From Torpedo marmorata (lineage: Eukaryota), in assembly GCA_977017645.1 (NCBI GenBank), contig OZ360242.1, forward strand, positions 28,582,001 through 28,646,000: a stretch of 64,000 nt of DNA, in the 5' to 3' direction. The notes beneath the pieces were generated by a model, which searched no databases, was not told where the DNA came from, and saw nothing but the letters and a program-made list of their open reading frames with translations. Positions 1 to 64,000 of this stretch are shown here, in pieces. Positions within the stretch are counted from its first letter, which is position 1. Each line of letters opens with the position of its first letter. Position numbers and translations under genes: made by a program.

Positions 1-1933
1 GAGGACAGTGGGAAGGAAGGAGGATCATATCTGTGCTTCAGTTGGTGGCTGCTGGGGAAAATGGATTTCGAGCTATGCCTTATATCAGGCTGGTGTGGCC
101 AATCGCAACTAATGGTCAACCCAGGATGAGGGGGGTGGGGGGGGGAGGGCTGAGGATCGCAGAGAAGAATTTGGGGTCCACAAGGGTGGAGCAGGGGAGA
201 TGATGGGTTGGGATGATGGGGAGGCCTGAGAATATCACAGGATCAGGTGGTTAAGGAAATTGGAGGGTCTGGGGAGAGTTGAGATTTGGACCTTAATAAG
301 GGACTGATGGTGTGGAGGTTGGTGGAGGAGATTGTTGGGGTGGTCATGATGGCCAGTGATGTCCTGAGTAATAAATGATGAGCAGGGAACTAATTTGACA
401 AGAGTCACATTCCAGTGCTTCATTGGAAAGACCTAGATGACTCGCGGGCAACCAACTACAGTAGCTTCCAATTTAACTTAGTTCAAGTTCCTTTGCAATG
501 TTCCAAGGATTTCTGATGCAATTATGACTCTCTTTTGCTTCTCTTTCTCTGACTGTAAAGGGCCACAGGCAATTTCTGCTGATGGTGAATCTTTGTCTGC
601 CTTAAGGCAGACTAAAGGCAATTATGTGTAATATTACATCTGTTTTATTACATGACAATAAAAGAATCTTGAATATCCAAAGGTGCCTGTTTGAATTTCC
701 AGCATATGACTGCTCAACCAGAATTGATTATTTTTGTGTTTCACTGCAAAACACGTTCAATTGCATAATGATGGAAAAAAACAATGCACAGCTGAATTTT
801 CAGTGTGTGATCTTTCCTGGAGATTAAACCTGATCAACATGCTCTGGCAGAAACAGAGAAATTCATGCTTTGTTTTCCACTCTTCTCAAATTCTATGCCC
901 ATTTCCAAACCTCACTCTGATGCCCACCTGGTTCTCATTCCTGAACAATATCTTTTCCAAATGTAGACAACGTCTGCCATGACTGTCTGGAGCTGAAGTA
1001 GCACAACAGGTACCATTGGCCCTGTTGTGAAAACTTATATTGTGCATGAATTTCTGGAGTATCAAAGGCTGGTATTTGGAGGTAGGAGGGGTTAGAATCA
1101 AGAGTGGGATTCTGGTAGTTAGTGTTGGCAAGATGGGTTGATGACATTGGCAGTTGTTGAACAGGTTGGGGCTTGAGAGATCACATATACATTTGAGAGA
1201 CTGGAAGTGGAGACTGGCAGTAGGTTTGGTGATTAGTGGCAGGGGGAGGGGGAAATAGGAGGCTTTCAGACCTTCGGGGGAAGAAGAAAATCAGGAGGTT
1301 GGGATGAGAAGGAATTGAGAGCGTGGTTTCAGTACAAGTGGGTAAGCGCAGGGTGGGATATAATTTACTTGTCTTGAGTTCTCCCAGTTTGATGTTCTTC
1401 TGAGAAGAATATGTTGTCCAAGGAGAACCCAACTGCAGCAGCCCTCCAAAGCCAACATGACCCAAGTTTGCCTTCAATACTCCTGTGTCAACATTCCATG
1501 AGCCCATGAAGTGGAAATGGGAGTGAGAATGACTCAAGCCATGTAATGCCCAGTCAAATTTCCAAGTGAAGCAAATGGTTGTTAATGCGTTTCATACTGG
1601 GGGAAAAATAGTTTCCCAATTGCACAATGTTGAAACATGTGTTATGCCACTGAATTTTAATGCAGTTCAAATTTGATATTGGGCTCACTATATCATGACA
1701 TCTGAATTGTAAACTGCATAGCATGTATTATAATTAGTGGCAACGTTCATACTACCTTGCAGACAGCTGAATGGTTTGTGGTTCTAAAAGTAGAGCTGAA
1801 AAGTAACAATGGGCCTTGCTAAAGTTTGTGGCATTGTACTTCCAGACACACTGTCATAAATTCAGCAGACTTCCAGAGAATCCTTGGAAAAATGGCAGAA
1901 ATTCAAACAGTAAAAATTACAGTAGCAGCTCAC

Positions 1934-2089
1934 ATCTCGTGTCTCTTGGTTGAACCGATCCACAAATTCTGCCAGGTTTTGGATGGGTTGGTAATTCATT
2001 AACACCACGGTCAGTAAGTCGTTGTCATCGAGGAACCCAGGCCTGCTCAACAAATCAGCCAAATCGCTGGGAGCTGTGGCTTTTAATGC
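1934..2089 (-). CDS. Exon C13
   Basis: 156 nt, phase 0->0, [22 protein letters not shown]...FNQETRD; same length and phases as B13. Confidence 0.87.
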
Positions 2090-5000
2090 CTGAGAATGGA
2101 CAATTGAGAAAATATTTTGAGGCAAACATATAAAGACAGTAAATGTAGAACCGGGACAAGCTGAAACATACTTCAACAGAATTTATTCACAATCCAAATG
2201 AAATAGATATATTGTGCCCTTGGCTTAAAAAAACACTATTTGGATAGAGTTTCTGCTCCTTTACATCAGCATAATTAGTGCAGAATTGGATTGGCCAGTG
2301 AAAAAGATCAGCAAATTTACAATGAAAGCAGACTTTGTCCAGAAGCAATAATATTCAATCATTTCATAGATTAGTTATGATAATTGAATACATTCATTCA
2401 AATCAAACCCCATCTATGAACTAGCAACATCCTCCAGCTTAATGCTGTATAAGTCCATGAGGCTTTTAAATTCTGATTTCTCAGATACATTCCTAGTTTT
2501 GAAAAATCAAAATCCAATTCATCAAGAAGTTGACAGATGTAATAGATGTTTTAGTTGTGTTTTATTACATTTATTTTCAATTATTTTAAATGAGTTTATA
2601 CTTAGGTAAAGGCCTGGAGACTCATCAGAAATGCTCATATTTTGTATTGAATACATTTCTGATTACATTAATAAAATTACTCCAAGTTATCATTCTTGAA
2701 TACATTGGTATTTCTCTTGGTGATACCTTGCAGAGCACTGATTCCTTATGACACTCTTGCTCCTCCTGTCCAAACACACAGAGGTGCATACTATACTTCA
2801 TAAAAGGGCATTTATTTGGGCTGTGAGTTCACTGTTGCTGTGCTGGGAATTTGGAGTGAACCCTTGCCCTCCCGAATGCTGTACCCTGTGGTGTTGGGTA
2901 CCTTACATGAGCCTCTACTTTCTCTGCTGCTGTGCACTGCTGTGTCAGGAACCTGGTGTTAACCCTTGCATTCCTCTGGAGCTCTTCCAGTAAAGAATCA
3001 CCCACAGTTCTGTGTGAAGAGCAAGAGTTATGTAGGCCAGAGCAAGTGTGTAGCTGCTCAGCACAATGATATGGGGTTCAGGACAGTATCCTGGATGCAA
3101 AGTGGATGTGAGAGTGCTAGAGATGGGCAGTGCCTGCTTCAGATGTTGATAGACATCTACAGCCTCCCTCATCACCTCCTCGGATCTGAAGAAAGCTGAT
3201 GTCTCCCCCTCACTGATTGTCTGCACATCTAAGAAGTTGTTATCATAGAGAAACTTAAACTCGAACTGGGAACATAGTTATTTTTCATAATGAGTATTGC
3301 GCAAACATGTCACATTTGCTTCACAATTACATTGTTATATGGGAAGTTTGAGTAGAAACTGAGCCAAACCACAACTTCAATCAAATATTGGAAACTGATG
3401 GCATTCACAAATGCTCATTGACACATAAACATGGACACACCTCTTGTGTGCAGTTTATATTGCCAGCCCCCAGACTGGAAGAAGGCTCCTTCACAGGCAC
3501 AAGCATCATAACTTGACCAGCACAACCCATCCTTGACCCTGTCCCATCCTTCACATCGAGATGCCCACTGTTTTTACCTCATTAATCTGGATGGAAGCAG
3601 TCAAGAATGCAACATCAGACAGAGTTAGAAATTCAGCGAAGTTTTGTAACTGGCTGTTCAGGTAAAGGACAAAGCTGTTATTTTCATAGCAGCTAAGAGG
3701 TAATGCTGGGGAACAAAAAAAAAAAGCAGTAAATATTTAGTTTGCTTTCCAAACAATGACCAACTCATAAAGACACCAGTAAAACACAAAAGTCTGCAGA
3801 CACTGTGATTGAAGTAAAAACACAATACTGGAGAAACTCAGCAGGTCAAACAGCATACTTTATAAAGCGAAGATAAAGATACATAACTAATGTTTTGATG
3901 AAGGGCTCAAGCCCGAAACATTGGTTATGCACCTTTATCTTTGCAATATAAAGTAAGCTGTTTGACCTGCTGAATTTCTCTAGCATTGTGTCATAAAGAC
4001 ACCAATTCCACTGAACAATTTGTCCAGGATGTCTACAGCTGTTGCGACATAGATCTGAAACAAGTGCAAATTTCCTCATTTAATTTTTAATTTAGAGATA
4101 CAGCATGGTAACAGGCCCATGAGCCTGTGCTGCCCAAATGCACCAATTAATCTACAAACCCTGAATGTTTTTGGAATGTGGGAGGAAACCGGATCACTCG
4201 GAAGAAAACCACACAGGGCACGGGGAGAATGTGCACACACCTTTCAGAAAGTGCCAGATTCAAACCCTTGTTTCAGCTTTGGATAAGCCTTGTCTCCTGT
4301 ATGTCAAATATGGATTGCAAACTTGCAGTTGGAAGTAACATTACCTGTCCATCATTTTAGAAGTTTTAGTGGCTGCAGAACCTTTTAAAAATGTGACCTG
4401 CTTGATGAAATTTAACCCATTTCTTCTGAAGAGGACCGAGAAAAATAAACCCACATGATCAATATTACAGTATAATACTAAGGACTGAGAGCATTATCAG
4501 AGAGTGAGAATGTAGGAAAAACACCCGAGTTCAAACTACCATGAAGACAAACAATGTTCGTACCTTTTGTGTTAACCAATATGGCTTCATATACATTTTC
4601 CTGAACACTCCTGTTTAGCTGTTCTTTGACTGTGCTCAGTGCTGAAATTCTACAAAAAAATAAATTGATGAGATACATGGATCACTATAATGCAATGCAC
4701 AAAACAACGTACATTTCAAAGATTTAAAATTCTGGTTGGGGTTCATGTCATAGGAACAATGACAGGGAATTTTTACTTGGAGGTCATCAGGTATCAGAGG
4801 ACAATTCTGTTCATTAATTTTATTGCATGGAAAATCCAGCAGGCACTAGCACACACACATCAATGCCAACAACAAAAACAAACACTAAATCCATCAGTTC
4901 ACACAGAAAAAAAAATATTTTTCTTGGTAGAATAATAAGGGAAAAGAATAGGAGCATTTTTCTTCCAGAACTGGCTCATTTCTCTGAATATTTTCATTCC

Positions 5001-8000
5001 TAGCAAAGTAATCTTCTGTCGATAAAGCAAAACTCCAAGCTGTCCGTACATTCACAAATCTGGTGCAATCAAACCCCTTTTGGCTTTCAACTCTTCAACC
5101 CCAGTATCTTGTCATGTAAATGCTATATGACAATCTGGACCATTCCCAACTGTGCCTCGTGTTGCAGTGATTTGAGAGCTTCATGTTTCCATTTGCCAGC
5201 AGCAACAACTCAATTGCAATGGAGCACAGGCTTCAAGGCTGCCTTTGACTCGAACTGAGTGCAAAACATTGTGGAGATTAACCAGGAGAGAATCCAGCTG
5301 TTTCAAACAGGAAGCCACCAGGACCAGGCAATGTAAGGAAAAGACCAGTCTTTAATTTCAGATACTCTTCACTGCAACAAAAAGCATTGGTGTCTGGTAT
5401 TAAATTTGATAATTTCCGAGCAACTCAGAACTTACATGATTCGAAGCCCTTCACAGTTCTTGGTGACAAAGATTAAGGGCAATGCATTTTCTGTGAGTCC
5501 TGGAAGTAAATCCTGCAATCTTCTGTCAAACCAGATCTGAAGTTCAGTGTCATTGCCATTTGAAAGAATTGGCTGTGTGCGGTTCAGAATTTCTTGCAGT
5601 AATGTTGATCTGACATCAGGTGTGAAAGTCACATTATTCTGAAAAAAAAGTTCCAGGGATGAGTAATTGTGGATGGGTGAGGAAGGAGATATGGGGCAGG
5701 AAGGGGAGTGGTGGCGTGGGGAAACATATGACTCCAACACAGCAACATCAGCAGCAATGAAAACAGCTTTCACATCAGCCTACTTTGCAGCAAATATATG
5801 CTGCAGAAAATGCTCTAAATTGAGAATTTTCTGACAACACCTTGAAGATCTTTAATTTTATTGAAAGAAAGGCAATAATTCTCTGATGTAATGAACAACC
5901 TAGTAGAATCAAGATTACTGAAGTTTCTCTGACATGCTTGATACTCATGTGATGAATTCAATGTCAGCCTAATGTGAAGTGAAGCAGTGTCCTACCTTGC
6001 GGCTCGCTGTGTTGAACCTTTCGACGAACTGAACCACAGTGTCAGTGGTGATGCTGTTGAAAATCTTCCGAACATCATCAGCATTACGCAATGTTCCACT
6101 CTTACCAGCAAAATCGCCCAGTTGGGAAGGTGTCAATAATTCCACTGCATCAAGCTGTTGAAACAATATTATAACTTCACCCTCTGCTAAGATCAATGCT
6201 CATAGAAATGCAAGTACAAACTGTTCTGTACTTATTTACATTTCATATTATCTTCTACCCATTTGGAATCAGTTGTTTTTAACTGCAAGAATCAGGTCCA
6301 TTGAGGTAGAAAATTCATTTTGGGTCAAAGTTCACTGCGAACAAATCAATGAAAAATTAACCAATGAGAGGCTGAAGGAACTCAGCAGGTCAAGCAACAT
6401 CCGTGGAGAGAAATTGTCAGTTGATGGTCAGGACCCTTTATGAAAGATGAAAATGGGACAGAGAGCTGCTAAAGGGGATGGTAATTATAAACAAACCGTT
6501 TACAAATACCTTCCTGAACAAACTTTTTTTTTTTTTTTTTTTAATAATTTTATTTAATTTTTTAAAATCACAAAATACATATATCAAGAAAATAATATAT
6601 TATTGAAAATACATGTGATATATTTACTACCCCCCCTTCCCACCCTCCCCTCCCCAACCCTCCCACACTATCTAATAAAAAAGAAAATAGAATATAAAAA
6701 TGTTAATTAAAAGGAAAGAAAAAGGTTGAATAATAAAGTTAAGAAAGAAAATTAGTGTTAGTATGAGGAGAAAAAACTATTTCAAGCTAACTCTACTTAT
6801 ATATTGGAGGTTACTTTGTCAGCGGTACTAACTTCTAGAGAATTAATTCATACCCATAATTCTCATATATGGGCTCCAAATTTTCAGAAAGAAATGATAT
6901 TTGTCTCGTAAATTATACGTAATTTTTTCCAATGGTATACACGAGCGTAACTCTGCATGTAATCTATCCAAATTTAAATCTAAATCTGATTTCCAAGTAA
7001 TAGCAATACATTTTTTTGAAATTGCTAACACAATTCGTAAAAATTCTATTTGGTACATATTCAATCTATTTCTAATACTGATTTTTTTAATATCTCCAAA
7101 CAGAAATATCATAGGGTCCATTGGAATCGTAATATTAAGAATTCTATCTAAAAATTCCTTAACTTTAGACCAAAAATTTTTAATTTTCAAACACAACCAT
7201 GTACAATGTACAAAAGAACCTATTTCATCTTTACATCTAAAACACATGTCTGACAATGCCGAATTGAATTTCTTTAATTTTTTAGGTGTTATATATAATT
7301 GATGAAAAAAATTATATTGTACTAATCTATATCTAACATTAATAATCTTAGTCATACTCAATTTACATAATTCTTTCCAGTGTTGTTCATCTATACTAGT
7401 GTTTAGATCTGATTCCCAATTTAATCTAGATTTATGTAGTCCTACTTTAAACATTTTTTTCTGAAGTAGTTTATACATTTGCGATATAAATTTGTTAACA
7501 TTTCCATTAGTAATTAATAACTCTAACCCATCTTGTCTAGGGGATATTAATTGATTCCCTAATTTCTCAACTAAAAATCCTTTAACTTGATAATAAGCCA
7601 AAACTGTATTATCCATTATTCCAAATTTTTCTTTCAATCTAGAAAAAGTAACAAATCTTCCTGCCTCAAAACAATCTTTAATCTTCTTAATTCCTTTTTG
7701 ATACCATAATTTTAAAAATTGATTATCAATAGAAAATGGTAATAATAAATTCTGATATAATGGCATATTTAAAGAAATTAATCCTTTTCGTCCTATTTCA
7801 TTATCTAATTGATTCCAAATTTCCAATAGATGTTTAATAATCGGTGACTTTTTCTTTTTAATCAATAATAATTTAGAATTCCATTTATAAATAATATCTT
7901 CCTTATTTCTTTCTCCTATATTACTCAATTCTATATTAATCCAAGCCGTATTTTTAGTTAAATCAAATAGTTCATTTATAAATTTTAATTGTGCTGCCTT

Positions 8001-11000
8001 ATAATAATATTGGAAATTAGGGAGTTGTAATCCTCCCATTTCGTATTCCCAAGTTAATTTATCCATACTTACTCTTGCCAATTTACCTTTCCATAAAAAC
8101 TTTCTAATAATAATTTTTAAATCTTTAAAAAATTTTTGAGGAATACCAAAAGGTATAGATTGAAAAAGATATTGAACTTTTGGAAAAATATTCATTTTAA
8201 TACAATTCACTCTTCCTATTAAAGTTATGGGTAAATCTTTCCAATTATCCAAATCCTTCTTTATTTTCTGAAATAAAGGTATGTAATTTAATTTATATAA
8301 ATTTTCTAACTTTGTATCCACTTTAACTCCCAAATATTTAATAGCTTCTTTAGTCCATTTAAATTTTGTAACTTCTTTACATTTAGTATAATCTCCTTGA
8401 GATAAAGCCATTATCTCACTTTTATCCGAATTAATTTTATATCCAGATATTTCACCATAATCCCTCAATATTTTATCTAATTGTTGAAGTGATTCAATAG
8501 ATTTTGTCATATATATTAATACATCATCTGCAAACAAACTAATTTTATGCTCTTCTACACCTACTTTTATCCCATTTATATTGATATCTTTCCTAATCAT
8601 TTCCGCCAACGGTTCTATTGCCAATACAAATAAGGCAGGTGACAATGGACATCCTTGTCTTGTTGACCGCGTCAAAGAGAATTTATTCCTGAACAAACTT
8701 TGAACCAAAATAATTAACTGAGGCTTCTGTTTAAAATAATACTCTTCAAGTCAAGCGCCAATATATTTTCTATCCACTCTCTGGTGTTAGCTAAATATAT
8801 CCAAATAAATGTGGCCAAACTGTTTTTTTGAGGAAATCCAAATCATTTGGTTATTTCTGGTGCTGACAGAGCGGTTCCAGCTGCGTGGGGGATTATGGGT
8901 AACGAAGATGGCCATTGATCTGTGTTTTAATTTCGAAGACATGTTTGTGGCGTCGGGAGCTCGGATGGACGGGCGGCCCAGTAAAGGATCCGCGGTCGGG
9001 GCGTTTGGAGCTCCGATGAGTGGATGGCTGGTGCGTCGGGAGCTCGGATGGGCAAGCGGTTGGGGCGTCAGATGGGTGAGCTGTTCCATAAGGATGGGTT
9101 TCCCTTGAATTAGCTAGGACCAGAATCCAAGTAAATACACCAACTAGAGCTGGAAACAAGGCTTTAAACTGAAAATAATGTTGGTGGGGGTGGTAGCAGA
9201 TATGCGCGGCAGGATGAATCCGACTTACGACCAATCCGAGTTACGACCACTCCTTCGGTCCCAATTACGGTCGTAAGTCGAGGACTACCTGCATATTATG
9301 TTTAATATAATAGAGCTGCAAAGTTTGTGAAAATATTCCAGGTCAGTAATTTTGTCTTATTCTTTCTTGCAATTTAAAGTAAATTTAGCAGTTTCAAGTT
9401 TTGTGCTTTTCATTTTTTCCACAAAACATCTGTTTTTTAAAATCGAAGTTGCCAATTTTTTTTAGGGAGGTGCAAGTAGTTGGCCTTGCCGAGGGCGCAA
9501 AATAGTTTGGCACGGGCCCTGGGCATGAGTATGTAGTTTAAAACTCAATGTGCGATCAAATGTGACACCAGGTTGCAAACAATCTGGTTTGGTTTCAGGT
9601 GATTACCAGGAAGAGGGATGAAATTCGTCACTGAGGAATGGAGGTTGTAATGAGCATCAGAGAGGAAAGAGATTAGTGAAGCAATTTTGTGCTTGCTCAT
9701 TCCAAGATGTCAGACAATAAGATGCAAAATCTAGAGAGGTCGTGGTGAAGTAGTCAGTTTGAACATTGAAACAAAAGCTGCACGTACAAATGTTGTTGCC
9801 AACGGCACCAACAAAACAAAGTGGAAAGTGAATAAACCTTTCGACCCCAGAAGTAATAGCTGGAAGTGAAAATATTTACTGGCCATAATAAGAATGGAAC
9901 CAGACAAGTGGTGTCCAGTGCAGGTCATCCAGAGTAGAGAGGTGATGAAAGAATTTGAAGCCGTTAACCACATTACATGGTCCAGACAGGTTGAGATAGG
10001 CAAGGAGGGGTACGCTACCTTTTCCCACAATCACATGGAGTGTTCCCTGGTATGGCAGGAAGGGCATAAACGTAACTGGAAAGATTGTAATTTGTTCCTT
10101 TACTCAGAGATTGAAGGGCTTTTGGACAATTGATTGGTATATGTTTTATAAATCAGCATTCAATCTTTTGAAGCAGAGAAATGTCATAACAAAATTGTGT
10201 AAAATGTATTTAAAGTTGGGTTTTGATTGAAGCTGATGAATCAAACACCAACATGAAAGGTATCAAAAATACTGGAATATTTATATTTAAATTTTCTCTA
10301 CATTAAAGGAAAGACCAACACATTTTATCTTATTACATCAAACTCTGGTCAGATATATTGCATTTTCACCATTTTAGAAGGCCTGGACCAATTCTATAAC
10401 TTACTGGGTTGAAGTCTGGATTCCTCCTGGTTAACATCTCTATCTGAACAAGGGCACTGAACATTCCCCAGTTCTTCAAAAGCCAATCTCTGGATCCATT
10501 AGTATTCCTGATACAACCAGAACCTAGAGGTAAAGGAGATTGCAGATTAGCCATCAATGGCATTTACCAGGAATAGTTCACAGCATCAAACTATTTTTAT
10601 TCTGGAATACTGAGATCAGAAAAGATGTTTTCAATGTTTTGAGGTTACATGATTGAATTTCTCAGCCTTTTAACTTTCAATGCAAATTATTCTTATTTCA
10701 AAACATTAAGACTTTAATCCAGAACTTCTGTCGCTCTCATTTCAGTGGATGTAAATCTATTTTTTCCCCAATAGCCTTTGTAGCTTACCTGTGGTGTCAA
10801 GGTAATGAAGGATCCATACGTTTAGCACGGTCTCTCTTGTCTCCTGTTGCATCTCTCTGAATCCATTACTCAGGCCTTTTACACTAAGTAGATAAATAGT
10901 AACACAGTTATTCACCTGACTTCTAATCAATGGTATAGTTTCATCTGCTGGAGAACAAGTGAGGGAATCTTCATTCAACATGCCTAGCAATCAGCTCGTG

Positions 11001-14000
11001 TACAAGACATAAAATTTATCTAAACTTTTCTCCCATTTTGATGAATGGTTCACAAAGATAAATCCACCATTAACAGTGATGCCCCATTGATATAGCATCA
11101 AGTTGTGATGTGGAACTTTGTTGAGCCTGTACAGGGCACTTCGTCTCCAGTCTGCTTCCTGATTTTATGCTTCTATGTTTTGATGCTGCCTTTCCAATTC
11201 AAACTGTAGAAGAGGATTATTCTGATAGAGAATCCTTCACTTACATTGCCTGGTAACCATCACAAGTAATGTTCCTTGTCCGCAAAGGTTTTAGCACGAA
11301 CTGGGAAATGCCAGCAATGAATGTCCTGAATCGCTCCTGGAACCACATTCTCAGGAAGGTGACGCTCGTTAGGTTTTCAAAGGTCTTCACAGTCTCCCAA
11401 AGTGCATTCATAAATGTGATCTTTGTCATCAGGGGAATTGATGATCGGTTCGGAAACTGGAAAAAAAAAGGATTGTGTTTAAACTCAGTAAACAAAGAGC
11501 TGTTTTGTCACCACAGATCTGAAACGTGATCCTTCCCTTTATAAGAGAGCTCAGTAAATTGTATAAAATGAAATTATGAAGGAAAATCAATGGCCGACAC
11601 CTGTTACTGTTTATGTCTTCAGTGGAATCATACAAGTGTAAGAAACAAAGCACATATTCAGCCAGTACATTGTATGATGGCTAATATTTTGTGATGAGTG
11701 AATGCCAAGGGTACGGCATTGTCCCGGTGACCCATTCCAAAACTAATTCCCATATTGGTTCAATAATACTTTGCTGGCTGAAATGTGCCTTAGAATGGGA
11801 TGTTGTAAAGTTATTAAAGATCACTTTTCCCTTATTTTAGTTCCTGTCAAAGAAATGGCACATATTTAGTGGGTGATTTTTGCGCACTATTTAAGGCAAA
11901 AAAAACAACTCTCAATTGGATGGTTAGTTAATTTATTTCCTGACCAATTTCGTTCTTTATGTCAATAGAAAGTGTGAAGTGATGCATGTTGGGAAGTTAA
12001 ACCAGGGCAAGACATAGACAGTGAATGGCATGGCCCTGGGGATTGTTGTTAGAGACGCTTTGGGATATAAGTACATTATTCCTTGAAAGTGGCAACACAG
12101 GGAGACAAGGTGATGTGGAAGGTTTATGGCCTCCTTGCCTTCATTGACTGAGGCATTAAATGTTGGGACATCATGCTGCAATTGTAGAAAATGTCCGTGA
12201 GGCTGCTCTTGGAGTATTGTGTCCGGTTCTGGTGTAAAAAGGTAGGATGTGATTAAGTTAGAGACGGTGCAAAAAAGATTCACAAAGATGTTACCTGGAT
12301 TTAAAGGTTTGAGTTATCAGGATAGGCTAGGTCTGTTTTCGCTGGATTAAAGGAGGCCGAAAGATGACTCGAGAGAGGTAAATAAAATTATGTGAGGCAT
12401 AGATAGTCAGATTATGTTTCCCATGGAAGGTGTGTCAAAAAATAAGTAGTTACCTGGTTGTTGAATTTGTCGAGGGCCTCGGTCAGGGTGGTTCTGTTAA
12501 GTTTCCGAACAAAAATGGTCAGTGCACTTTCATCTGACCTATTCAAAGCTTTTGGACCAGTGAAACAATGAAACACATCTGCCAGGTCATCACTGCTTAA
12601 ACTGGAGACGAGTCGATCAGCCTGAAAAGAAATTCATATCAAAAGATATTTGTTAGCTTGAAGCACTCCATTATTTTGATGTAAAATATTGGCAAGTGTC
12701 TCAATTCTTTTAGCCATAAAAAAAAACAGCTGGAGAAACTTTGTGAGCTGTGCAGCATCCATGGGGGAAAGGATGTGTCGACGTTTTGGACCGATTTCCT
12801 GCATCAGCACCTGATGCAGAGACTCATCCTGAAATATCAGTGATTTCTTTACCCCACAGATGCTGAGAACCCCCAGCAATTTTTTGCTTCACATTCCAAC
12901 ATGTGTAGCCTTACATCTTGACTCATTTCTTTGAATAATCTGTGTAAAATGTATTTATTACAACTGTTAAAATGACATCATAATACAGAAATGCCTAAAC
13001 TTACGGTTTTGTGTGAAAGACTGACTGATGAGAAGCTTACCTCAGCACATGCATAGTCAGTAACGTTGAAGTTGCAGAGCTGACTCACATTAATATTGAG
13101 CAGGAAAGTCTTCAAAGCTGAACTACAGGGAGAAAAGGTGATCTATTCTTAGGAAAGATGTTACTGTGAGTAACAAATAGTCAAACAGATTCTTTCCGAC
13201 CATTTACATCTCACAATTTGAGGTTAATAACATGTGATTTAAGTATTCAATATTACTAAATAATACACAACAAAATATTTGGAATATCTGCCATGTCAGG
13301 AGATATCATTCACTGACGCATTGACAGAATCTGTGAAACTACACAGAAAAGATGTATTGAATTCTTACCTGTCTATTGCTCTACACAATGTAGTTTCTGT
13401 ATGATAAATTAAAAAGAAATAATTTTATTACATTGGAATTAAAATACTAGAACTGGTCAAGTTATAAAATAATGTAGAAAATACACTTACCATTAACTGT
13501 AATATTACCAGGCTAAGGAATAGAAATAATAAGAACTTTAATGCCGAATCATCTTAAATTAACACACAATGGTGGTAACATTCAAATATTGTTGGAAGTA
13601 ATGAGTAATTATTTAATCAATTACTTTTCCTTAATCTACAACATTTAAAAAATATCGGATATGTAGATTAAGATTTACAAAAATTAAACGCTGCAAAAAC
13701 AAACAAGAAAGTATACTGAAAATTGACATTCGGAAAATATAGTGTTGAGATTTTCTTACTTTGTTGTCAATTTCAGGTTCTGTAAAAAAAAAATGAAGCA
13801 CAACAATGTCAGAAGATGCTCGAGCTGGCATGTTATTAAACTTAATCAAATCACATCATTGTAATAAATTACACTCACAATTATGACTTAAGTCAATATT
13901 GGAATCAACATTTGTTTTGATAAGATCATCTTGTCCCACAGTACAATCTGTTCACAACTGAATTTTGACCTGCACTGTTCCCTACAATTGTGGAATTTAG

Positions 14001-17000
14001 CCTGTTAAAGCATCCATTACCACCCTGAGGATAAAGGCACCAATCTTTCATCTAACATCAAATTGTGCAATGCACACAAAGTCGCAGCAGAGCCAAAACT
14101 CCAGAACTATGAGTTATCAGCTGGAGACTATATTGAAGGATTTGAAGACAAAATTTGACTGATATTGAACACTTTGGCAAGAAATTACCTGATGAATTAT
14201 TTGGAATACCTCCTGTCAGGCCAAGTTTGCTCACTTCAGACTCACTGTGTGAGGCCACCCAAACCCTGACTACAGTTTCATTCTCTCCAGTTTGCAAAGC
14301 GCGAAGGTGATATCCAAGCAAATTGATTAGAGTTTCAGCACTCAGTTTCTGAAAATAAATAAACATTTAATGAACGACAACCACAGCAAAATATTTTGTA
14401 CTTTATCTTGACTTTCATTTCATCTGGATAAATGGATAGAGATTAAAAAAATGGGATGTTGGATTTCAATAAGCTTTCAGGATGCAATATTTTGAGTCGC
14501 TCAACAAAAGGCTCACATCGGGCACCAGAAACGGGGAGAACATCCCCCGTTGAGAAGGAGAAGCATAGGAGATGACCCTACAGAAAGGTGACCATGGCAG
14601 CGGACCAGCGAGGGGCTCAGTGGCTGTAGGACCCACATAGGCTGTGGGCTGCTGGAGACTTGCGGTCAAAGTATCCACACAGGCTGTGGGCTGCTGGTGA
14701 CTTGCGTCGAAGGACCCACACAAGCTGGGGGTTGCTGGGGACTGGTTCCAAGGAACCAGGCATTAGAACCTGGATTCGGGAGGGTGCTGAAGCCAAGAAG
14801 AGCCCCCGAAGTGCCCCGGGTGCTGAAAGGTTCCTGATTTCTTTGTAGATTTGGATCTGAATTGCTTGAACAGAAGTCTGTGAGGTTGCAGAAGCACTGG
14901 AGGCGAATCCACTGACACTCAATGTCTCTGAAGGGACTCTCCTTTGCTTCTCTTTCTCCTATTGTTAGGGACGCAGGGCAATGCTCATGGCCACTCTTTT
15001 GTTTGCCTTATAACAGACAAAATCTGAAGTGCTGTATATCATGCATATTACATTTTTATGATTTTAACGTGACAATAATAGGAACTTTGAACCTTAAGTT
15101 ACAAAATACAAAAGTACAAGACAAGTTGGCATAGGTTAAAGGAAATGACTAAGAGGTTTAGAAAGGATCGGAGGAAGATCTTTTTTTATATAAGGGGGTG
15201 CCCATTCTAAAAATACGAGAAGAATTTTTTTCACCTCAAGGGCGGTGAATATTTGGAATTTGCTGCCCTTAATGGTTATGCAGGAGTCACCACTGAGCAT
15301 ATTTGAAGCAGAGATCAATAGGTTTTAAGAGAAACAAATGGATATAGAGTTTGCACAAGTAGCCAAAAGATAAGCCATGATCTAATTCAACAGCTCAATC
15401 AAGAACATTATTTAAGATTCAGAGAGGGTATTTAATGAGCTGAGATTGAAACAAGAAGTTAAGAAATTGTAACCATGACAATGTTAATGAAATAAGGAAA
15501 CATTTGGTCTCTTTATACCTTTACTTCTTCAGGATCCAATCGTCTGAAGGTTGAAAAATCCATGTTGACGCTGTTGTTTGCAAGAAACTTCAGATCATCA
15601 GCTTGGGCACCACCTGAAGAAAAGAGAGATATTTTCTATCTTTATGTGGAGGGTTGAGTAAAGGCACAAAACCAAATGTTACTGCAGGTGAAGGAAGCAT
15701 ACACAGGGACAAAAAAGGGGATGTATTTTTAGGGTACCCTGTTTACGACATGGAATAATTTTGAAAGGTGAAACATCTGTTGGTCTATTCAGTATTCAAG
15801 ATTATCCGAGACCTGCCAAGAAATTTAAACTATGCCCCTCACCTCCTGTGCATGCTTGGGTTTTGCACTGGAATTCTTTGGGTTCCCTGTGATCGAAAAG
15901 GATCAGATCTCATTGATGCAAGAGTGCATCTATTTTATCCACTGAATTTGGAGTATTAGTCATACTGACGAATTATTGGGACAGGGACATTTGTGGTCAC
16001 TTTACAGACTTGGGTGCCCATCCAATTGTTGGACAATTGTTAAGACTTGAGCCTAATTCAGTTTCATGTTCACACAGGAGTTCTGCTTTAATAGTGGTGG
16101 TCTGGATTGAACAGAGTTAAACAGGATCAATATCTCTGAATGCTTCACAACTTGAAGGTTCTTAAGATTTCATCATCTTACAACTGAACCTTTGTAAGAT
16201 GATTGCATCTTAACACTGACAATTGACAAAATCCTGACTCGGCAGATTCCAAATCTGATTGTGGCAGTTTCTGCAGTTCAGTTCAAAAACCAATGCAAAA
16301 AGGAAGTTGTGATTAATTCAGACAATTGGCCAAATTAAAAAAAGAATTAACTTACCAACATATGACTTTATCAGCTGAAAATAGGGGATTGGGCTGTTTC
16401 GTTGAGAGCTGAGAGCAGTGACAGCCAAATCATAAAGCAAACGTTGCTTTTCCCGTGCACACGCAGAAAGATCCAGAGCTCCGGCATCCCTGAGGAAAGA
16501 AGTCACAAATAAATCCTACCAAGTGTCTCTGCAATTACACCAGGTCAAGGGACCGGAATGTGTACCTTGCAGCTCAAGAAATATACCCAATCTGTTGACT
16601 ATATCTGGGAGAGTGTTAGAAGTTCCAAACTCAAAATCACATTTACCAGCACAATTCATACTATTGATAACACCAGATCAGAAACTGAAATAAAATATAA
16701 CTGCAGGCATTTTCACCTTGACAAGTCCGAATGGCTACAGCCATCAACTGAGTGAATGGCTGCACACTCAGCATCAAGGTTCACAAGAAGAACAGGTTCC
16801 TGGAAGAAGCTGTCCCAATACAAATACATTGAAGAAAAAACTCTCAATAATTAAGTTATCATTATGACTCCAGCTATAAGAGACTTTCCTCTACATATTG
16901 GAGAAAATTGGAATTACTTTAGACACACTGGAAAGTGCAGATGCTGGAATTTGAAGCAAAACACAATCTGCTGGAGCAACTCATCGGTGGAGTAGCGTCA

Positions 17001-20000
17001 CCAAGAGAAAAGGTATGGTCAATGTTAAGCCAAAAAACTTCATCAAGACTGGAGGTGTAGAGAATTTAGTGTAAAGAGATCAAGGTGTGAAGGGTAGGAC
17101 AGAGGCCCATGTGGGATTGGTGAAGTGAACCATGACAGACAGTAGCAGTAGGTTGGCAGAGGCCAGTAAAAGGGGAGTAAGAGGCAAGAAAACCAAAGGG
17201 GTCAGGTGGAGGAAAATGAGTCATACAGGGTGGAGAGGGTAATTAGGAGAGAAAGGCTGCCAGTTTTGTGATTTGATCAGTAGAGAAGGTGACAATGGTG
17301 GTATAAAGAGAGACCAGGAAGAACCAAAGAGGATGGTGGGAAAAGAGTGGAAGAATCCACTCTTTTCCCACCAGACAGCAGACAGAATCAAAGAGGAGGG
17401 GGAATGAGAATAGGCAGGAGCCAGGTGAGGTTGAGTGGGAAACGTGACAAAAATAAGGATGGAAAGCGAAGGGGAGAGGGGGAAGAGCAGAAGTGGCACT
17501 GAAGAAGAAAGGGGACTGATTACCTGAAATTAGAAAATTCTGCGTTCATACATTTGGGCTGATGTTGGACTGCCCAGGCTGAATATCAAGTGTTGTTCCT
17601 CTAGTTTGCTTTGGGCCCCACACATATTAAATTAAAACACTGCCACAAAATGGCAAAGATCAATAAGATGGAGGTCATATTGATGCTTATAATCACCAAG
17701 CTGTCAGTTTATGTCTCAACCAAATTCCTTAGAGAAGGAATAACCTAACTGTGAGCTGTAAAGTTGGTTTACAAAATGGCTCATTGCTGCACAATTACTT
17801 GGACTGAGTGAGTTCAAAGACTGATACTTTGTTCCTCAGGAAATCAGATAATTTTACCAGAAAACTAGTAATTGAAAGATGTATACTTACGTCAATTTGG
17901 AAATTGTCTTCAGTTGTTCTTGATTCAAAGTGCACAAATTGGCTCCACCAATGCCTTTCAAAGAAACTGCATTGAGGTTACCGCCTGACTGCAGAAATTG
18001 TGTAATAATGAAGGTCACCTGTTGAAAGATATTTGAAGAGCAGATGATTATTCATTGTCAAATGGTGATCTTTTATTCTTGTTTTCTTACATTTTTGAAA
18101 TATTATTTTTTTTTAGTATGGAATTCTTTTAAACTATACATCGTTAAATGGTTATCAATAACTCCCATCCATTGCACCCCATGTAGAATTTTCACTTTAC
18201 CATTTTGGCCACTTCTTCTAATCACCAACTGTACCTCATCGTGCGAAGCTAATTACAAATCACTTCAAATAACAACGCCCCATGTATATCACGTTTTGCA
18301 AAGGAAATTCCAGATTACATCACCATATGCCTGCAGATAGCAAACTGTTTGCATTTATCTTTTCTTAGTGTCAGTACCGTTATGTTATCCAGCTGTTGCT
18401 TCATCAATGCAGAAAGTGTCTCAACCCGAGTGATATTCCAGCTGCTGACTTCTGTTGCATTAAATACAGTGGATATGTTGCCCAACAGTTGAATCTGGTT
18501 TTCTGGGAGACCCTTGGGATAAATCTATTTCAGGAAATACAACATCATAAAACTCAGTCATTTTGTTAGAAGAGGTTTTCTCTATTCATGGTCTACCTGG
18601 CTCTTTAAACTTGTCTTGAATTCAACTGGATCAAGAATGATCTGATCAGTGGCTTCAACTGTCGGATTCCCGAATCATTGCTGACCCCATTATCCAAAAT
18701 CTACCTGAACTTTGAATATACTGTACAAAATGTCACGGCAAGCACAGCACTCAAAGGTTTAAAGAGAATTAAGAAGGCACAACATCAAGCTTAAATGGGA
18801 AATCCTTTATCCTATGACTGGCCACAATTCGAGATTCCCTCCTGTATCCACCCTGTTAAGCCACCTCTGAATATTTTAGGTTTTTATTGGAAAAACTTTT
18901 ATTCTTCTAACCTCCAGAGACCTTAGGCCCGTTTCACTCAACTTGTCCTCACAACCCAACCCCTTCATTTGATGAATCACTTTAATGAAGTTCCCAACAC
19001 TGCCAGAAAGCTAAATACACCCATCTATAAATGAAGAGGTCAAAATTATACATACTGCTCTGCACATGGTTTCATCAAAGCACTGTACAGTTGAAGAAAG
19101 ATTTCCCAACTTCTTTGCACCATGTCTTTTGTAATAAAAGCACGCTAAATGTACGGTTAGCGCAGCGCTAATACAGTGCTGAAAGGAGTTTGTACGTTGT
19201 ACCTGTCCCTGCGTGTGTTTCCTCTGGTGCCCCAGTTTCCTCCCACCATTCAAAATTGGACAGGGTTTGGAGGTTAATTGGTGTATTTGGGTGGCACGGT
19301 CTCTTGAGCCAGAAGGGCCAATTACTGTCCTGTTTATATTTAAAACATATATTCTATCTGATTTTTTTCTATTGTGAAGATTCACCACCTATTTCTGAAC
19401 ACCAGTCATTAGTTATGCACTATATAAATACTATTCTTTTTTTACACTTGCAACCAACATCAGTGAGCTTTATATTCACTTAACTGCTGTCCTCCTAATA
19501 ACTTACTTCTGGCATACAATACATCCAGTCCTTCTTCAAAGTTATGAACACAAATTCTAAATAACTGGAGATTCCTTCAACACCTCCCCAGTTTGAATTT
19601 GATATTGACTTAGTAATCCCTTCTTTCTTACTGAGCAAGTTCTCTGTTATCAAAGGAGCTGACTTTGGGATTAGACATTAAACAGAGACCTCAGCTGACA
19701 TTTCAGGATTTGGTTAAAAATAATCATGACTCTATATGTAAAACAGGCACAGAGTTCCCTGTGCTCCTGCCCCAAGTGAATTCCTTCAGCAAGTGATGAC
19801 ATATTTTTTAATGTAATAATTACCATTTTCTGCATCATCTTGTCAACACAAGACATTTGCTGTGAACCAATGCAGGAGGTCACATGGAGGGTGGTGGGTA
19901 CATGCAACAAACTGCTAAAGGAACTGGTAGAGGCAGGGATAATTGAAATACTTCAAAGACATTTGGACAGGAAATATTGAGAGTATATGGGCTGAACAAA

Positions 20001-23000
20001 GGCAAATGGGACAACATTGGTCAGTATGGGCAAGTTGGTCAAAGGTCGTGTGCCCTTGCAGTAAAACTATGATTCCATTTCCTGAGGCAACGAAAGGCAT
20101 CGCAACAATACTGCATTTGTATAAGGAAATAAATAAGAAGTTTGCAGATACTGGGGTCTAGTGCAGTACAAAAAAGTGGTGGAGAAACTCAGCAGGTCAC
20201 GCAGCATCCATTGTAAGGAAAAAGGCAATTGAGATTTTGACATCAGGAAGACTGGATGCAAATTGAGGGGGGGGGGGGGACGCTTCGTCAAGCCCCTTTG
20301 CTCTGCCCGCTGCCACAGTGAGGATCTATCAGTGGCCAACCACTTCAATTCCACACTCCATTGCCACACTGATCTATCTGTCCATGGCCTCATGTACTGC
20401 CAGATTGAGGACACTTGTAAACCTCGTATTCAGTCTCAGCAGTCTCCAACCAGGTGGCATCAACATCGACTTCCCCAATTTCTGGTCACCCCCTCCCAAC
20501 ATTCTCCTGATTTCCCTTCTCCTCTGTCTCCTTTCCTTCAGCTCGCCGGTCCCTTCCCTTCCTTCTCCGATCGGAGAACTATCTTTCTCAGCCTCCCCTT
20601 ACTACCCCTCAGCTCCTTTCTCTTTTTCACCCTCTAACCCGTGTCCATTATCACCTGCTCGGCTTCCTCCCCCCGCCCTCTTATTCGGACGTCTGCCTGA
20701 TTTTCGACACACCTTGAGAAGGGCTCAGGCCTGAAACATCGACTGACTTTTGCTTTCCATGGATGCTGTATGGCCTGCTGAGTTTCTCCAGCACGGTTAT
20801 GTACTATATTTTTACAAAGCTTACTTACACGCAGAAGTTTATTTTTCAGAACTTTCAGCTGAGTTGGATCAAAGGCTAGTGATCCCAGCTTGAGAACACC
20901 ATCTTTCAGCACAGCATCACTCAAACAAAGGTCCAACTGGGTCGCATCATACTTTGCAGGAGTCAGGTCATTGATGTCTTCTGGTGCTATTTCTCCCTCT
21001 GTACAGGCTGGCAATACAAAATTCCATTGGGTGAAAGAGAGACAGGAGTGGCAGGTTAATACTGATGGCGGCTGGGTTTTTAGATTGGCTGAAGGGAGTC
21101 AAAAAGGAGAGTGGTATGACAGGCAATAGAAAAGTTGATGTGTTGGAAAGACCAAATCAAAATATAGGAGAATGGAAATGGGTCAGTCACACTTCTGGGA
21201 ATGCAATACAGAACTGCAGCCTCAGAGTGAGGTAGAAGAGAAAATCCGAAAGGAAATTTCCGTCATGTACGCAGACAACTGGGCATTAAGAGTGGAAGAT
21301 TTCAATTTCCCTAATTGGGATACAATCAGAATAACACCCCCCCCTCCCCCCACCCCCACCGAAACCTAACCCAAGAGAGATTCCAGGTGGAAAGTGGGTG
21401 GCATCAGGAAGAGGTCGCAAGTGTGGGAGACTTCAGGATGAGAGCTCCTCTCAAACAGGGATCCACAATTGGAGATTGCTGCAAGTGATAACGCCTGAAG
21501 AGATACGTATCACTTCCAGGTGTCATCATCTTGGCGTCGATGAGTGTACCGCAGCACAGAGGCCAATAATAACGAATATTTATGCCGATGATACGGGAGT
21601 TAGTCAAGAAGTAGAAAGTGATTTCAGGAATATTACCAGTACCATGTGCAAGTGAGAACAGAAATGAATGGAAGTGAACATTTTAAATAGGGAGGAACTT
21701 GAGGAAAGGTGCATGAAGAGAACACGGTGATCTTTGGGGCATTGGAATTGGTTCTGGGTCATGAGACAACTTTTCAACAGGACAGGATGGTCTTCAACAG
21801 GACTGTCGCTGGTGCTCTCTCAGAGAAGTACACAGGTGCAGGGAGGAAAAAAATAAATTCTTCCAATTATAATTCAAAATGTTGTGACGGATCCTGTAGG
21901 GAGATATGTAATGATACATTGCCAGATATATTCAGAATTTTTGACTTTATTGAATATATATGCTCCCAATATGGATGATGATAAGTTCATTCAAGAGACT
22001 TTTCTTAATAGAGCGGAAGCACATGAGAATATTATAATAGGAGGAGACTTCAACTTTTGTTCAGATCCGGTCTTTGATAAGTCTACAAGAGGAGCGAAGA
22101 GAACTAAGGCAGCGAAAGCTACGCTGGTATTAATGAAAGACTTAAATTTAATAGCCGCCTGGAGAAGAATTCATCCTTGGGATAAAGATTTTTTATTTTA
22201 TTCCAGTAGGCATGATTCCTTATTCCAGAATTGATTTATTTTTAGTTTCAGCTCAACTGCAAGACAGAATTCTAGAAGTAGAATATAAAGCAAGGATTTT
22301 GTCTGACCATTCACCTTTAATGATGACAATTGTCGTACCTGATAAAGAAAAATCAATATATAGATGGAGATTGAATCCTTTGTTATTAAAAAGAACAGAT
22401 TTTTGTGATTTTATAAGGAGGCAAATTCAGATATTTTGTGAAACAAATGTAAACTCCGTGCCTGATAAATTTGTAATATGGGAAAGTTTGAAAGTATATT
22501 TAAGAGGTCAAATTATGTTATTCTTCAAAAATTAAAAAGGAATATATGAGAGAAATAGACCAATTAGAAAAAGAAATAACAATTTTAGATAAAGATTTAC
22601 AAAAGAGGAGCTCTGTCGATAAATGTAGACAACTAATAAATAAAAAACTTCAATATAACATATTACAGACTAATAGAACGGAGAAGACTATTATAAGAAA
22701 CAAGCAAAGATATTATGAGCTAGGTGAACATTCACATAAAGTACTTGCAAGGCAATTAAAAACAGAACAGGCATCAAGAACAATTAATGCAGTTAAAAGC
22801 GAGGCTGATGTTATTAGCTATAAACCCCAAATAATAAATGATTCTTTTGAAAAATTTTATTCTGATTTATATAAATCAGAGTCTTTGCAAGATGACAGTA
22901 AAATTGATGGATATTTATCACAGATAAATTTACCAAGATTAAATATGCAAGAGCAATTAGAATTGAGTACCCTGTTTACGCAGAAAGAAGTGAAAGATGC

Positions 23001-26000
23001 AATGAGTTCATTACAAAGTAATAAAGTACCGGAGAGGATGGTTTTCCGCCAGAGTTTTATAAAGAGTTTAAGGAATTATTAATTCCTGTCTTTATGGATT
23101 TGTTACAGCAGGCGTCTGTGACTCATACACTTCCAGAATCTTTTTCTACAGCAATAATTACAGTAATACTAAAAAAGATAGAGACCCATTGAAACCTTCA
23201 TCATATTGACCAATTTCATTACTGAATGCAGACCATAAAATTGTAGCGAAAATCTTGGCCAATAGGATAACAAAACTTTTGCCAAAATTAGTAAATATGG
23301 ATCAAACAGGCTTTATAAAAAAAAGACAAGCAGCTGACAATGTAGCAAGGTTACTTAGTATTGTTCATTTAGCTCAAAAAAGAAAAGTATTAAGTGTCGC
23401 GGTGGCACTAGATGCAGAAAAAGCTTTTGAGAGATTGGAGTGGGACTTTTTGTTTAAAGTATTGGAGAAATTTGGATTTGGACAGACTTATATAGATTGG
23501 ATTAAAGCATTATATAACGCTCCAAAAGCTAAAGTAGTGACTAATGGACAAATATCAACTTCGTTTTGCTTGACAAGATCTAGTCGACAAGGGTGCCCAT
23601 TGTCACCAGCTTTATTTATATTAGCTATAGAACCACTTGCAGAGGCAATTAGAAGTGACTCGGCAATTAACGGATTTACAGTTAGTCAAGAGCAACATAA
23701 AATCATCTTATTTGCGGATGATGTTTTAATATATTTGACAGAACCTGAGACTCTCTGCAAAGATTGTATTTTAAATTGGAAGAATATGGGAAAGTTTCAG
23801 GTTTTTAGATAAACTGGGATAAAAGTGAAATTATGCCTCTTACAGAGGGAAATTATACTATATGTAAAAGAAGTACTCAGTTTAAATGGCCACATAATGG
23901 GATAAAATATCTAGGGATTCGAACAGACAATAATTTTAAAAATCGATATAAACGGAATTATCTACCATTACTTAAAAAGATTAAAGAAGATTTGGAAAAA
24001 TGGATTAATTTACCTATTACACTGATAGGAAGAGTTAATAGTATTAAAATGAAAATATTTCCAAGGATACAATATTTGTATCAAACTATACCTATTTTAC
24101 TACCGCAGGTTTTTTCCCAGGATTTAAATAAACAAGTGTGAAAATTTCTTTGGAAAGGTAAAATGTCAAGAGTTTCTATGGAATGTTTAACATGGAAATA
24201 TGAATTGGGAGGTTTACAACTCCCTAATTTTAAAAATTATTATCGATGGGCACAAATGAGATTTGTTACTTCTTTTTTTGAAAGTGAAGGAAGACCTGCA
24301 TGGGTTGGAATAGAGCTAGGAGAAATAGGAGAGAAAGTACCAGAAGAATTTATATATAAATGGAACTCAAAATTATTGATAGGAGTTAAAGAAACATCAT
24401 TACTAAAACATTTGATTATTGCATGGAACAAGATTAATGATGAGATAGGGATGAAAGGAACTATATCACCTAAAATGTCATTGATACAGAATAATCTTAT
24501 ACCGTTTACAAAAGATAATCAATTTTTAAATACATGGTCACAGAAAGGAATAAAGAAGATAGAAGATTGTTATGAAGGGAATCAATTGATGTCGTTTGTA
24601 CAGCTAAAAAACAAATATGGAATACCGAATAACACTCTTTTTTGTTATTTTCAATTAAGAGGTTATTTAAGGGAAAAATTAGGTCCGGATATGTTGTTAC
24701 AAAATTGTAGTGAGGTAGAAACCCTTATTAGGAAAGGAAATATTAAAAAATTTACTTCTATAATATATTCCTTGTTACAAAGGGGAGCCTTAAAACAAGG
24801 ACTTTATAAATCTAGACAGAGATGGGAACAAGATCTTAATGTTATAATTGATGAAAAAATATGGTCGGATTTATGTCAAGATAGTATCACCAACACTATT
24901 AATGTAAGATATAGATTAGTACAGTATAATTTTTTACATCAATTATATCTTACACCACAAAAATTGAATAAGATAAAATCTACATTATCAAATAAGTGTT
25001 TTAGATGTGGTGAAGAGGAGGGAACTTTTTTACATTCAACATGGTTATGCTCTAAGGTAAAAAAAAGTTTGGATGGAGTTAGGGAATCTGTTAAAACAAA
25101 TTACAGGTGTCACATTTCCACAGAATCCTGATTTATTTTTATTAGGGAATGTGGAAGGAACTAGACCAAAGTTGAAGTTATCAACATATCAACTGAAATT
25201 TGTAAAAAATTGCTTTAGCAGTAGCAAGGAAGTGTATAGCAGTAACTTGGAAATCAGATACAAATTTAGGCATGGATAGATGGAATATAGAGATGCGGAG
25301 TTGTATTCCATTGGAAAAAATAACATATGAGAAATAAATATGGGGTCTTCTTGCAAATTTGGCGTCCATATATCCAATCATTAGGTATGAATATTTAAAT
25401 GTGTTGTTCTACATCCTAGACCCTGTTGACTCTCTCAAATTTAAATAATGAAAAAACTGTTGAATACCATGCGTCGAGCCGTGGACCAAGCAGCGATCCG
25501 TACAGATGTTTTAATAAGTAATACTATAATGCCTTCTTTTCTGTTTTCTTTTTAGTTTTTAGTAAGGGGAGGGAATTAAAGGGAGGGGAAGGGTGGAGGG
25601 TGGGGTAGAAACATTTAATACTTAATACTAAGTAATAATTTTAATTGAAATGTTTGGAAGATATAAGGGGTTGGGGGAGTTAAGGTAGGGTTAGATACAC
25701 TATGTAATACAAATTATGGTTTTTAATAATGTATATTATATACGTTGTATTACTGTGTGAAAAATTAAAAAGATTAAAATAAAATATTCAAAAAAACAAA
25801 ATAAAAGTAGAAAATGATTTCAGGAATATTCCCAGTACTACCATGTGCAAGTGAGAACAGAAATGAATGGACGTGAACAGTTTAAATAGGGAGGAACTTG
25901 AGGAAAGGTGCATGAATAAAACACGGAGATCTTTGGGGCATTGGAATTGGTTCTGGGTCATGAGACAACTTTTCAACAGGACAGGATGGTCTTCAACAGG

Positions 26001-63539: not shown

Positions 63540-64000
63540 CTGAAAATAAATAAACATTTAATGAACGACAACCACAGCAAAATATTTTGTACTTTATCTT
63601 GACTTTCATTTCATCTGGATAAATGGATAGAGATTAAAAAAATGGGATGTTGGATTTGAATAAGCTTTCAGGATGCAATATTTTGAGTCGCTCAGCAAAA
63701 GGCTCACATCGGGCACCAGAAACGGGGAGAACATCCCCCGTTGAGAAGGAGAAGCATAGGAGATGACCCTACAGAAAGGTGACCATGGCAGCGGACCAGC
63801 GAGGGGCTCAGTGGCTGTAGGACCCACATAGGCTATGGGCCGCTGGAGACTTGCGGTCAAAGTATCCACACAGGCTGGGGGCTGCTGGTGACTTGCGTCG
63901 AAGGACCCACACAAGCTGGGGGCTGCTGGGGACTGGTTCCAAGGAACCAGGCATTAGAACCTGGATTCGGGAGGGTGCTGAAGCCAAGAAGAGCCCCCGA

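Follow-up and report, generated by a model that had tools for sequence, protein, structure and literature searches.

The normal role of mesothelin is, to our knowledge, poorly understood. Human MSLN is made as one 68-kDa precursor, which furin cleaves into MPF and the 40-kDa mesothelin, and the C-terminal region of the solved mesothelin is flexible and holds the shedding sites (accessible part of PMC10035497). Two members of the same superfamily, otoancorin and stereocilin, are described as GPI-anchored proteins, predicted to be superhelical, which touch the gel lying above them (PMC2628672, available portion). The MSLN neighbourhood in chicken and human is a NARFL/CIAO3–RPUSD setting (excerpts of PMC12159700 and PMC3117340). 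As for fishes, a catshark homologue, scyTo_0003439 (P0012), is among the spermatozoa proteins listed in the accessible part of PMC11083954, and salmon mslna figures as a transcript of the skin in that of PMC12339338.

The window, i.e. the whole 64,000-nucleotide stretch of Torpedo marmorata DNA that was analysed, lies within a gene of this family. Of six window exons tested, one matches the Pfam Mesothelin domain, at E 4e-6 and with 25.6 bits vs the cut-off of 25.8, three exons of the locus exceed the PF06060 cut-off in the genome search, and PF06060 is present in 28 out of 28 matches listed in three protein searches. Homologues among the matches listed are shark, ray, chimaera, snake, and newt proteins, the closest annotated relative among them being that of the electric ray Narcine (80–89% over units). 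Solved mesothelin is the sole sequence match in PDB (4 of 177,635), and the Atlas search returned only mesothelin/otoancorin and unnamed chordate clusters, otoancorin being weaker (0.85–0.88). An ARM/HEAT-like fold is indicated by the all-helical model of a 300-residue piece of a shark homologue that covers a junction, for which the top eight Foldseek matches, with ~120 residues aligned, are mesothelin (best E 2.4e-4). The gene (28.45–28.92 Mb) is flanked by PF02906 exons at 28.34–28.40 Mb and a PF00849 exon at 29.06 Mb, assigned at the family level (NARFL/CIAO3-type, RPUSD-type) with paralogues not told apart.

Mapping of homologues on the window and 600 kb of flanking DNA yielded seven tandem units, A to G, over ~470 kb, with lengths of 2,288, 1,614, 1,446, 1,447, 1,447, 1,435, and 1,497 aa, respectively; the unit E protein is 99% identical to units C and D. 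The gene starts at a hydrophobic, signal-peptide-like exon with an ATG and a phase-1 end (window coordinates 339976–339913, ~276 kb past base 64000); next come three exons, of 23, 22, and 28 nt, and then the 82-nt exon. A Narcine database protein starts with the same peptide. The terminal exon at −129189 (window coordinates; ~129 kb before base 1) is of phase 1 and carries a hydrophobic, GPI-signal-like tail, matched by the C-termini of relatives. Each of these two exons occurs in one copy in 664 kb. The signal peptide and the GPI signal are present as hydrophobic first and last exons according to both the scan and the relatives, anchoring being predicted. No significant relics of either exon were found in the six junction introns. 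A scan of the A>B, B>C, E>F, and F>G junction introns for hydrophobic terminal exons gave none at A>B and E>F, and two candidates each, without support from relatives, at B>C and F>G.

Chaining of all exons produced one open frame of 11,196 aa with 260 exons and 301 sequons; this model is approximate, as microexons were given a score bonus, without which the chain left out almost every one, and the ends of seven exons were adjusted manually. Among GPI-anchored proteins, a predicted product of some 11,200 residues with 301 sequons would rank as very large. Units A, B, and G (~330000–190000; −53000 to −70000) vary in length by extra copies of an N-terminal sub-repeat of three to four exons, and the model gives unit A 52 exons. 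The only RxKR (furin-type) motif of the model is in unit G, at −102159 to −102279, just before the part corresponding to mature mesothelin; cleavage there, in the membrane-proximal unit, would free the whole chain. Introns contain retrotransposon-like fragments with RT-like open stretches (6846–8659, 21898–25400, 37651–37991, 50216–51800), some of which differ between otherwise near-identical units, as well as an open stretch at 47977–48243 of the plus strand, which we take to resemble a retroelement protease region. An intron of unit B (contig ~28782100–28783500) contains a tandem array that is 1.3 kb long and repeats every ~82 nt.

At the junction of units E and F (E>F), the earlier note had described three microexons with GTAAGA, GTAAGT, and GTAAGA donors, encoding 23 residues. 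We reproduced them on the minus strand, with the same translation and with AG acceptors at each (Table 1), and likewise recovered the second set claimed at 62560–62969, of the same sizes, the count of 34 exons per unit, and the phases of the flanking exons. Exon 34 of unit E corresponds to the C-terminal end of solved mesothelin by sequence and structure matching. Microexon 2 holds one complete sequon and the Asn of a second one, which is finished by microexon 3.

Table 1. Features of the locus in the window (all positions are those of the window).
Feature	Positions	Strand	Size	Phase	Peptide, donor, or remark
Complete unit E	14189..62969	(-)	34 exons, 1,447 aa	1 at both ends	
Unit F, 5' part	1..13779	(-)			gene runs on past the window start through unit G
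Microexon 1, unit F	13760..13779	(-)	20 nt	1-0	EPEIDNK, GTAAGA
Microexon 2, unit F	13491..13512	(-)	22 nt	0-1	PGNITVN, GTAAGT
Microexon 3, unit F	13369..13396	(-)	28 nt	1-2	ETTLCRAID, GTAAGA
"Exon 4", unit F	13041..13122	(-)	82 nt	2-0	two conserved Cys
Microexon 1, unit E	62950..62969	(-)	20 nt		
Microexon 2, unit E	62682..62703	(-)	22 nt		PGNTTVN
Microexon 3, unit E	62560..62587	(-)	28 nt		
Last mesothelin exon ("exon 34"), unit E	14189..14348	(-)	160 nt	0-1	
Last mesothelin exon, unit D	63380..63539	(-)	160 nt	0-1	

To score the splice sites, matrices were trained on 152 longer exons of the same gene. By this measure, the acceptors of microexons 1, 2, and 3 fall at the 98th, 27th, and 45th percentiles, and their donors at the 43rd, 85th, and 97th, respectively; hence, the sites, previously called strong, are normal and within the range of the gene, but ordinary rather than strong throughout. 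Pseudo-exons of 9–51 nt that score alike number 13 in 409,306 intron bases; the expected number of chance look-alikes in the 1,066-nt gap is 0.034, and the probability of at least three is ~6e-6, which is optimistic, as the thresholds were set from the three microexons themselves. On sequence criteria, all three are genuine exons. With the main acceptor of exon 4, the frame stays open for two out of eight possible subsets of the microexons: all three, in line with the proposed in-frame bridge, and exon 3 alone, which bears out the suggestion that exons 1 and 2 (42 nt) could be skipped together; skipping any single microexon (20, 22, or 28 nt) shifts the frame. The frame is also kept via a weaker alternative acceptor at 13117, provided that all microexons are skipped or that only exons 1 and 2 are included.

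At A>B (window coordinate 229561, beyond the window), exon 34 ends with a GC donor, where other internal units have GT, and the counterpart of exon 34 in the last unit extends 27 nt further before its donor. Weak donors at 43115 (GTGGAG) and 18378 (GTACTG) are common to the recent units, and the Narcine model P0015 ends via read-through of the weak donor corresponding to 18378.

The microexons are copies of exons 2–4 of the gene, carried along in each duplicated block. The repeated block starts at exon 2 and closes with the last mesothelin exon, has phase 1 at both ends, and is present in seven copies. The microexons do occupy the site where the last unit has its GPI-signal exon, as had been proposed, but the interpretation of them as a purpose-built linker fails: the signal exon already precedes counterparts of 23, 22, and 28 nt, which were copied with each unit. 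A search of the ray's own genome gave four copies of the triplet, ~48 kb apart. The F>G junction has diverged and has unrelated introns, and the sizes there are still 20, 22, and 28 nt, clear DNA matches between E>F and F>G being limited to exons 2 and 3 and one 20-nt intron stretch. The A>B junction contains the 28-nt exon 3 alone; as a scan gave no candidates for the 20- or 22-nt exon there, this short form looks like a genomic loss.

A plausible scenario is that the block, being symmetric in phase (1-1), was duplicated in tandem, that each internal last exon would then splice to exon 2 of the next copy, which replaces the GPI exon, and that the copies may still expand or be homogenised via unequal crossover or conversion. 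In the tree, the internal units of a species group together, even when set against those of Narcine, suggesting that expansion or conversion is still going on. Units C–E might instead be assembly duplicates, but the three to four copies differ by 1–3%, and relatives show similar runs. Taking all this into account, we consider it probable that the microexons are exon 2–4 copies, likely constitutively spliced, that join the units in a predicted GPI-anchored protein of ~11,200 residues.

We then compared the junctions with those of other cartilaginous fishes, using 54 rows from 49 proteins (16 named species plus two Logan records), which include isoforms and near-identical copies and are partly redundant prediction models; one more short junction, P0033 at 199, was missed by the search pattern and stands outside these rows. 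In the 16 species, the junction peptide is either whole or exactly 14 residues (42 nt) shorter: 15 rows are short, 33 are longer by exactly 14 residues, and five and one are four and one residues, respectively, under the long form. The shorter form occurs naturally, at A>B of the same gene and in relatives. The exon-3 cysteine is present in 54/54 rows. The first sequon (NIT/NTT, exon 2) is seen in 31 out of 39 long rows, and the one spanning the exon 2/3 junction, in all 39; hence, the better-kept sequon is the second one. The earlier note had stressed a substitution that keeps the first sequon, and it is indeed observed, the X codon being ATT (Ile) at E>F and ACC (Thr) in the other three out of four near-identical copies; but this position is free, and microexon columns (two variable out of 70) vary no less than intron columns (31 out of 996) among the four copies, so that we dropped it as an argument for selection.

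Two Logan contigs (P0031, P0040; 10.5 kb) contain a 3,067-aa frame that starts with the signal peptide and continues across the N-terminal microexon peptides and the A>B junction. As the corresponding part spans more than 100 kb in the ray genome, they must be spliced; we take them to be transcripts, which belong to a skate-like cluster and carry the short-type, not the three-exon internal, junction, and they come closest to direct evidence of splicing. The expectation that gene predictors would miss the microexons and split the locus was half right: 39 out of 54 rows have the long form, but splitting is real, mostly at other exons, with three adjacent loci in Hypanus, two in Narcine, and several in Leucoraja and Rhinoraja. 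Two models (P0032, P0049) end at an exon-34 junction, reading past the donor; the longest model of a relative is 7,628 aa, and none covers all units.

These data also bear on whether exons 1 and 2 form a regulated cassette pair of 42 nt, which would switch the spacer and its glycans between tissues in the style of neural microexons, with skipping of whole units as well. In its favour, the frame is kept with exon 3 alone; the junction orthologous to E>F is long in an Amblyraja model and short in a Leucoraja one; Amblyraja isoform models P0030 and P0037 are 1,436 aa, i.e. one unit, apart, as the phase symmetry allows; and TGC is present upstream of microexon 1. We nevertheless find it improbable: neither exon 1 nor exon 2 alone keeps the frame, unlike typical neural microexons, which are 3–27 nt long and in some cases lack the UGC motif (PMC12871342, accessible part); TGC precedes only two out of ten microexons checked, and not the same exon in both junctions; and the short form at A>B looks attributable to the loss described above.

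The split models, together with P0032 and P0049, could also be taken to mean that the units are separate tandem genes, whose 5' exons are the microexons, or that intronic polyadenylation truncates the product into secreted proteins of one or few units. This is very improbable, as one signal exon and one GPI exon are present in 664 kb, the split models have no signal or anchor ends, the 409 nt separating exon 34 from microexon 1 contain no AATAAA or ATTAAA, and the Logan contigs cross the A>B junction where P0032 stops. It is exceedingly improbable that the microexons are look-alikes that go unused, with exon 34 joined straight to the acceptor at 13117, a path that is in frame and was chosen by the unweighted chain, since this acceptor is weaker (5.3 vs 9.6 for the main one) and missing from units A, B, and G, the sizes of the microexons, their cysteine, and their sequons are kept in 16 species and at diverged junctions, and chance accounts for them poorly, as estimated above. 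Thus, we retain the reading of the microexons as copied exons joining the units of one protein; taken alone, they are likely ordinary constitutive exons.

What they contribute to the protein was assessed on the fold model of the equivalent part of the shark homologue (300 residues, 10-row alignment, mean pLDDT 73.6, pTM 0.50), the first 120 residues of which match solved mesothelin. Residues 122–141, i.e. the exon 34 tail, exon 1, and most of exon 2, have pLDDT below 50, although low values at a domain joint are expected anyway, and residues 144–148, corresponding to exon 3, form a helix. The proposed glycosylated hinge therefore agrees with exons 1 and 2, predicted to be disordered and carrying sequons, but not with exon 3, which supplies the invariant Cys and is predicted to be the first helix of the domain that follows. 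Together with the exon 34 tail, exons 1 and 2 would make up a spacer of ~20 disordered residues bearing two or three N-glycans, which would allow the rigid helical-repeat units to pivot; exon 3 may begin or cap the next folded domain and provide its disulfide cysteine. The units are thus likely rigid solenoids joined by a short glycosylated spacer of exons 1 and 2. A cysteine in microexon 2, missing at E>F, occurs together with one extra domain Cys in 21/21 rows, and both are absent in 33/33, which suggests, from about two lineages, a tethering disulfide in the first and last units.

The whole chain could serve as a long, heavily glycosylated tether or coat of the epithelial cell surface, whose units may bind mucin-like partners many times, as mesothelin binds MUC16 once. 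We infer this function of a multivalent mucin-binding tether from likeness to the family, as outlined in the available portion of PMC2628672.

In the literature searched, which covers few subscription papers and was in part available as excerpts, we found no description of the multi-unit mesothelin gene, and the giant multi-unit variant is apparently undescribed. Its peptides are already present in public gene models as "uncharacterized," mesothelin-like, or mslna, often split, and several public annotations break up or truncate the locus. The microexons reveal how a gene for a GPI-anchored protein may have grown giant: the whole body between the signal and anchor exons forms one phase-symmetric block, multiplied sevenfold and homogenised within species. 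The models examined have four, five, and seven units, depending on the species. Possibly, although we consider it rather unlikely, cartilaginous fishes have a megadalton GPI-anchored mesothelin chain, whose length is tuned by unit number, unit skipping, and the 42-nt microexon pair; if true, such a chain would act as an accordion-like tether at the surface and, as a naturally multivalent mesothelin, could be used to test the binding partners of the family. A lineage that multiplied the mesothelin unit also offers a handle on the normal role of mesothelin.

Compared with known systems, the ray gene shares with mesothelin (MSLN; mslna is the skate member at NCBI) the signal peptide, the helical-repeat body, and the GPI signal, and the end of each ray unit resembles mature mesothelin in both sequence and fold. 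In contrast to the single human precursor, it has seven units (1,435–2,288 aa) in one frame, with a single RxKR in the last one. Single-unit mesothelins of snake and newt (P0021, P0022, P0023; 1,416–1,986 aa, ~31% identity to one ray unit) similarly have a signal peptide, a GPI-like tail, and early cysteines after the signal; unlike the ray protein, they consist of one unit, and the homology of their first residues to the microexons was judged by eye. Otoancorin (1,137 aa) and stereocilin (1,775 aa) are not tandem whole-gene repeats, and the ray locus has the MSLN neighbourhood. Compared with SRRM4-dependent neural microexons, those of the ray are similar in size, two out of three being within 3–27 nt, but they do not keep the frame individually, have the UGC motif upstream in two out of ten cases checked, and belong to an extracellular protein, whose reading frame, when the main acceptor is used, requires exon 3 as a minimum. 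Finally, symmetric phase 1-1 modules are known from exon shuffling, and the ray block, having phase 1 at both ends and being duplicated between the signal exon and the anchor exon, is like them; unlike shuffled modules, it comprises not one domain, but nearly the whole gene (at least 34 exons, ~48 kb).
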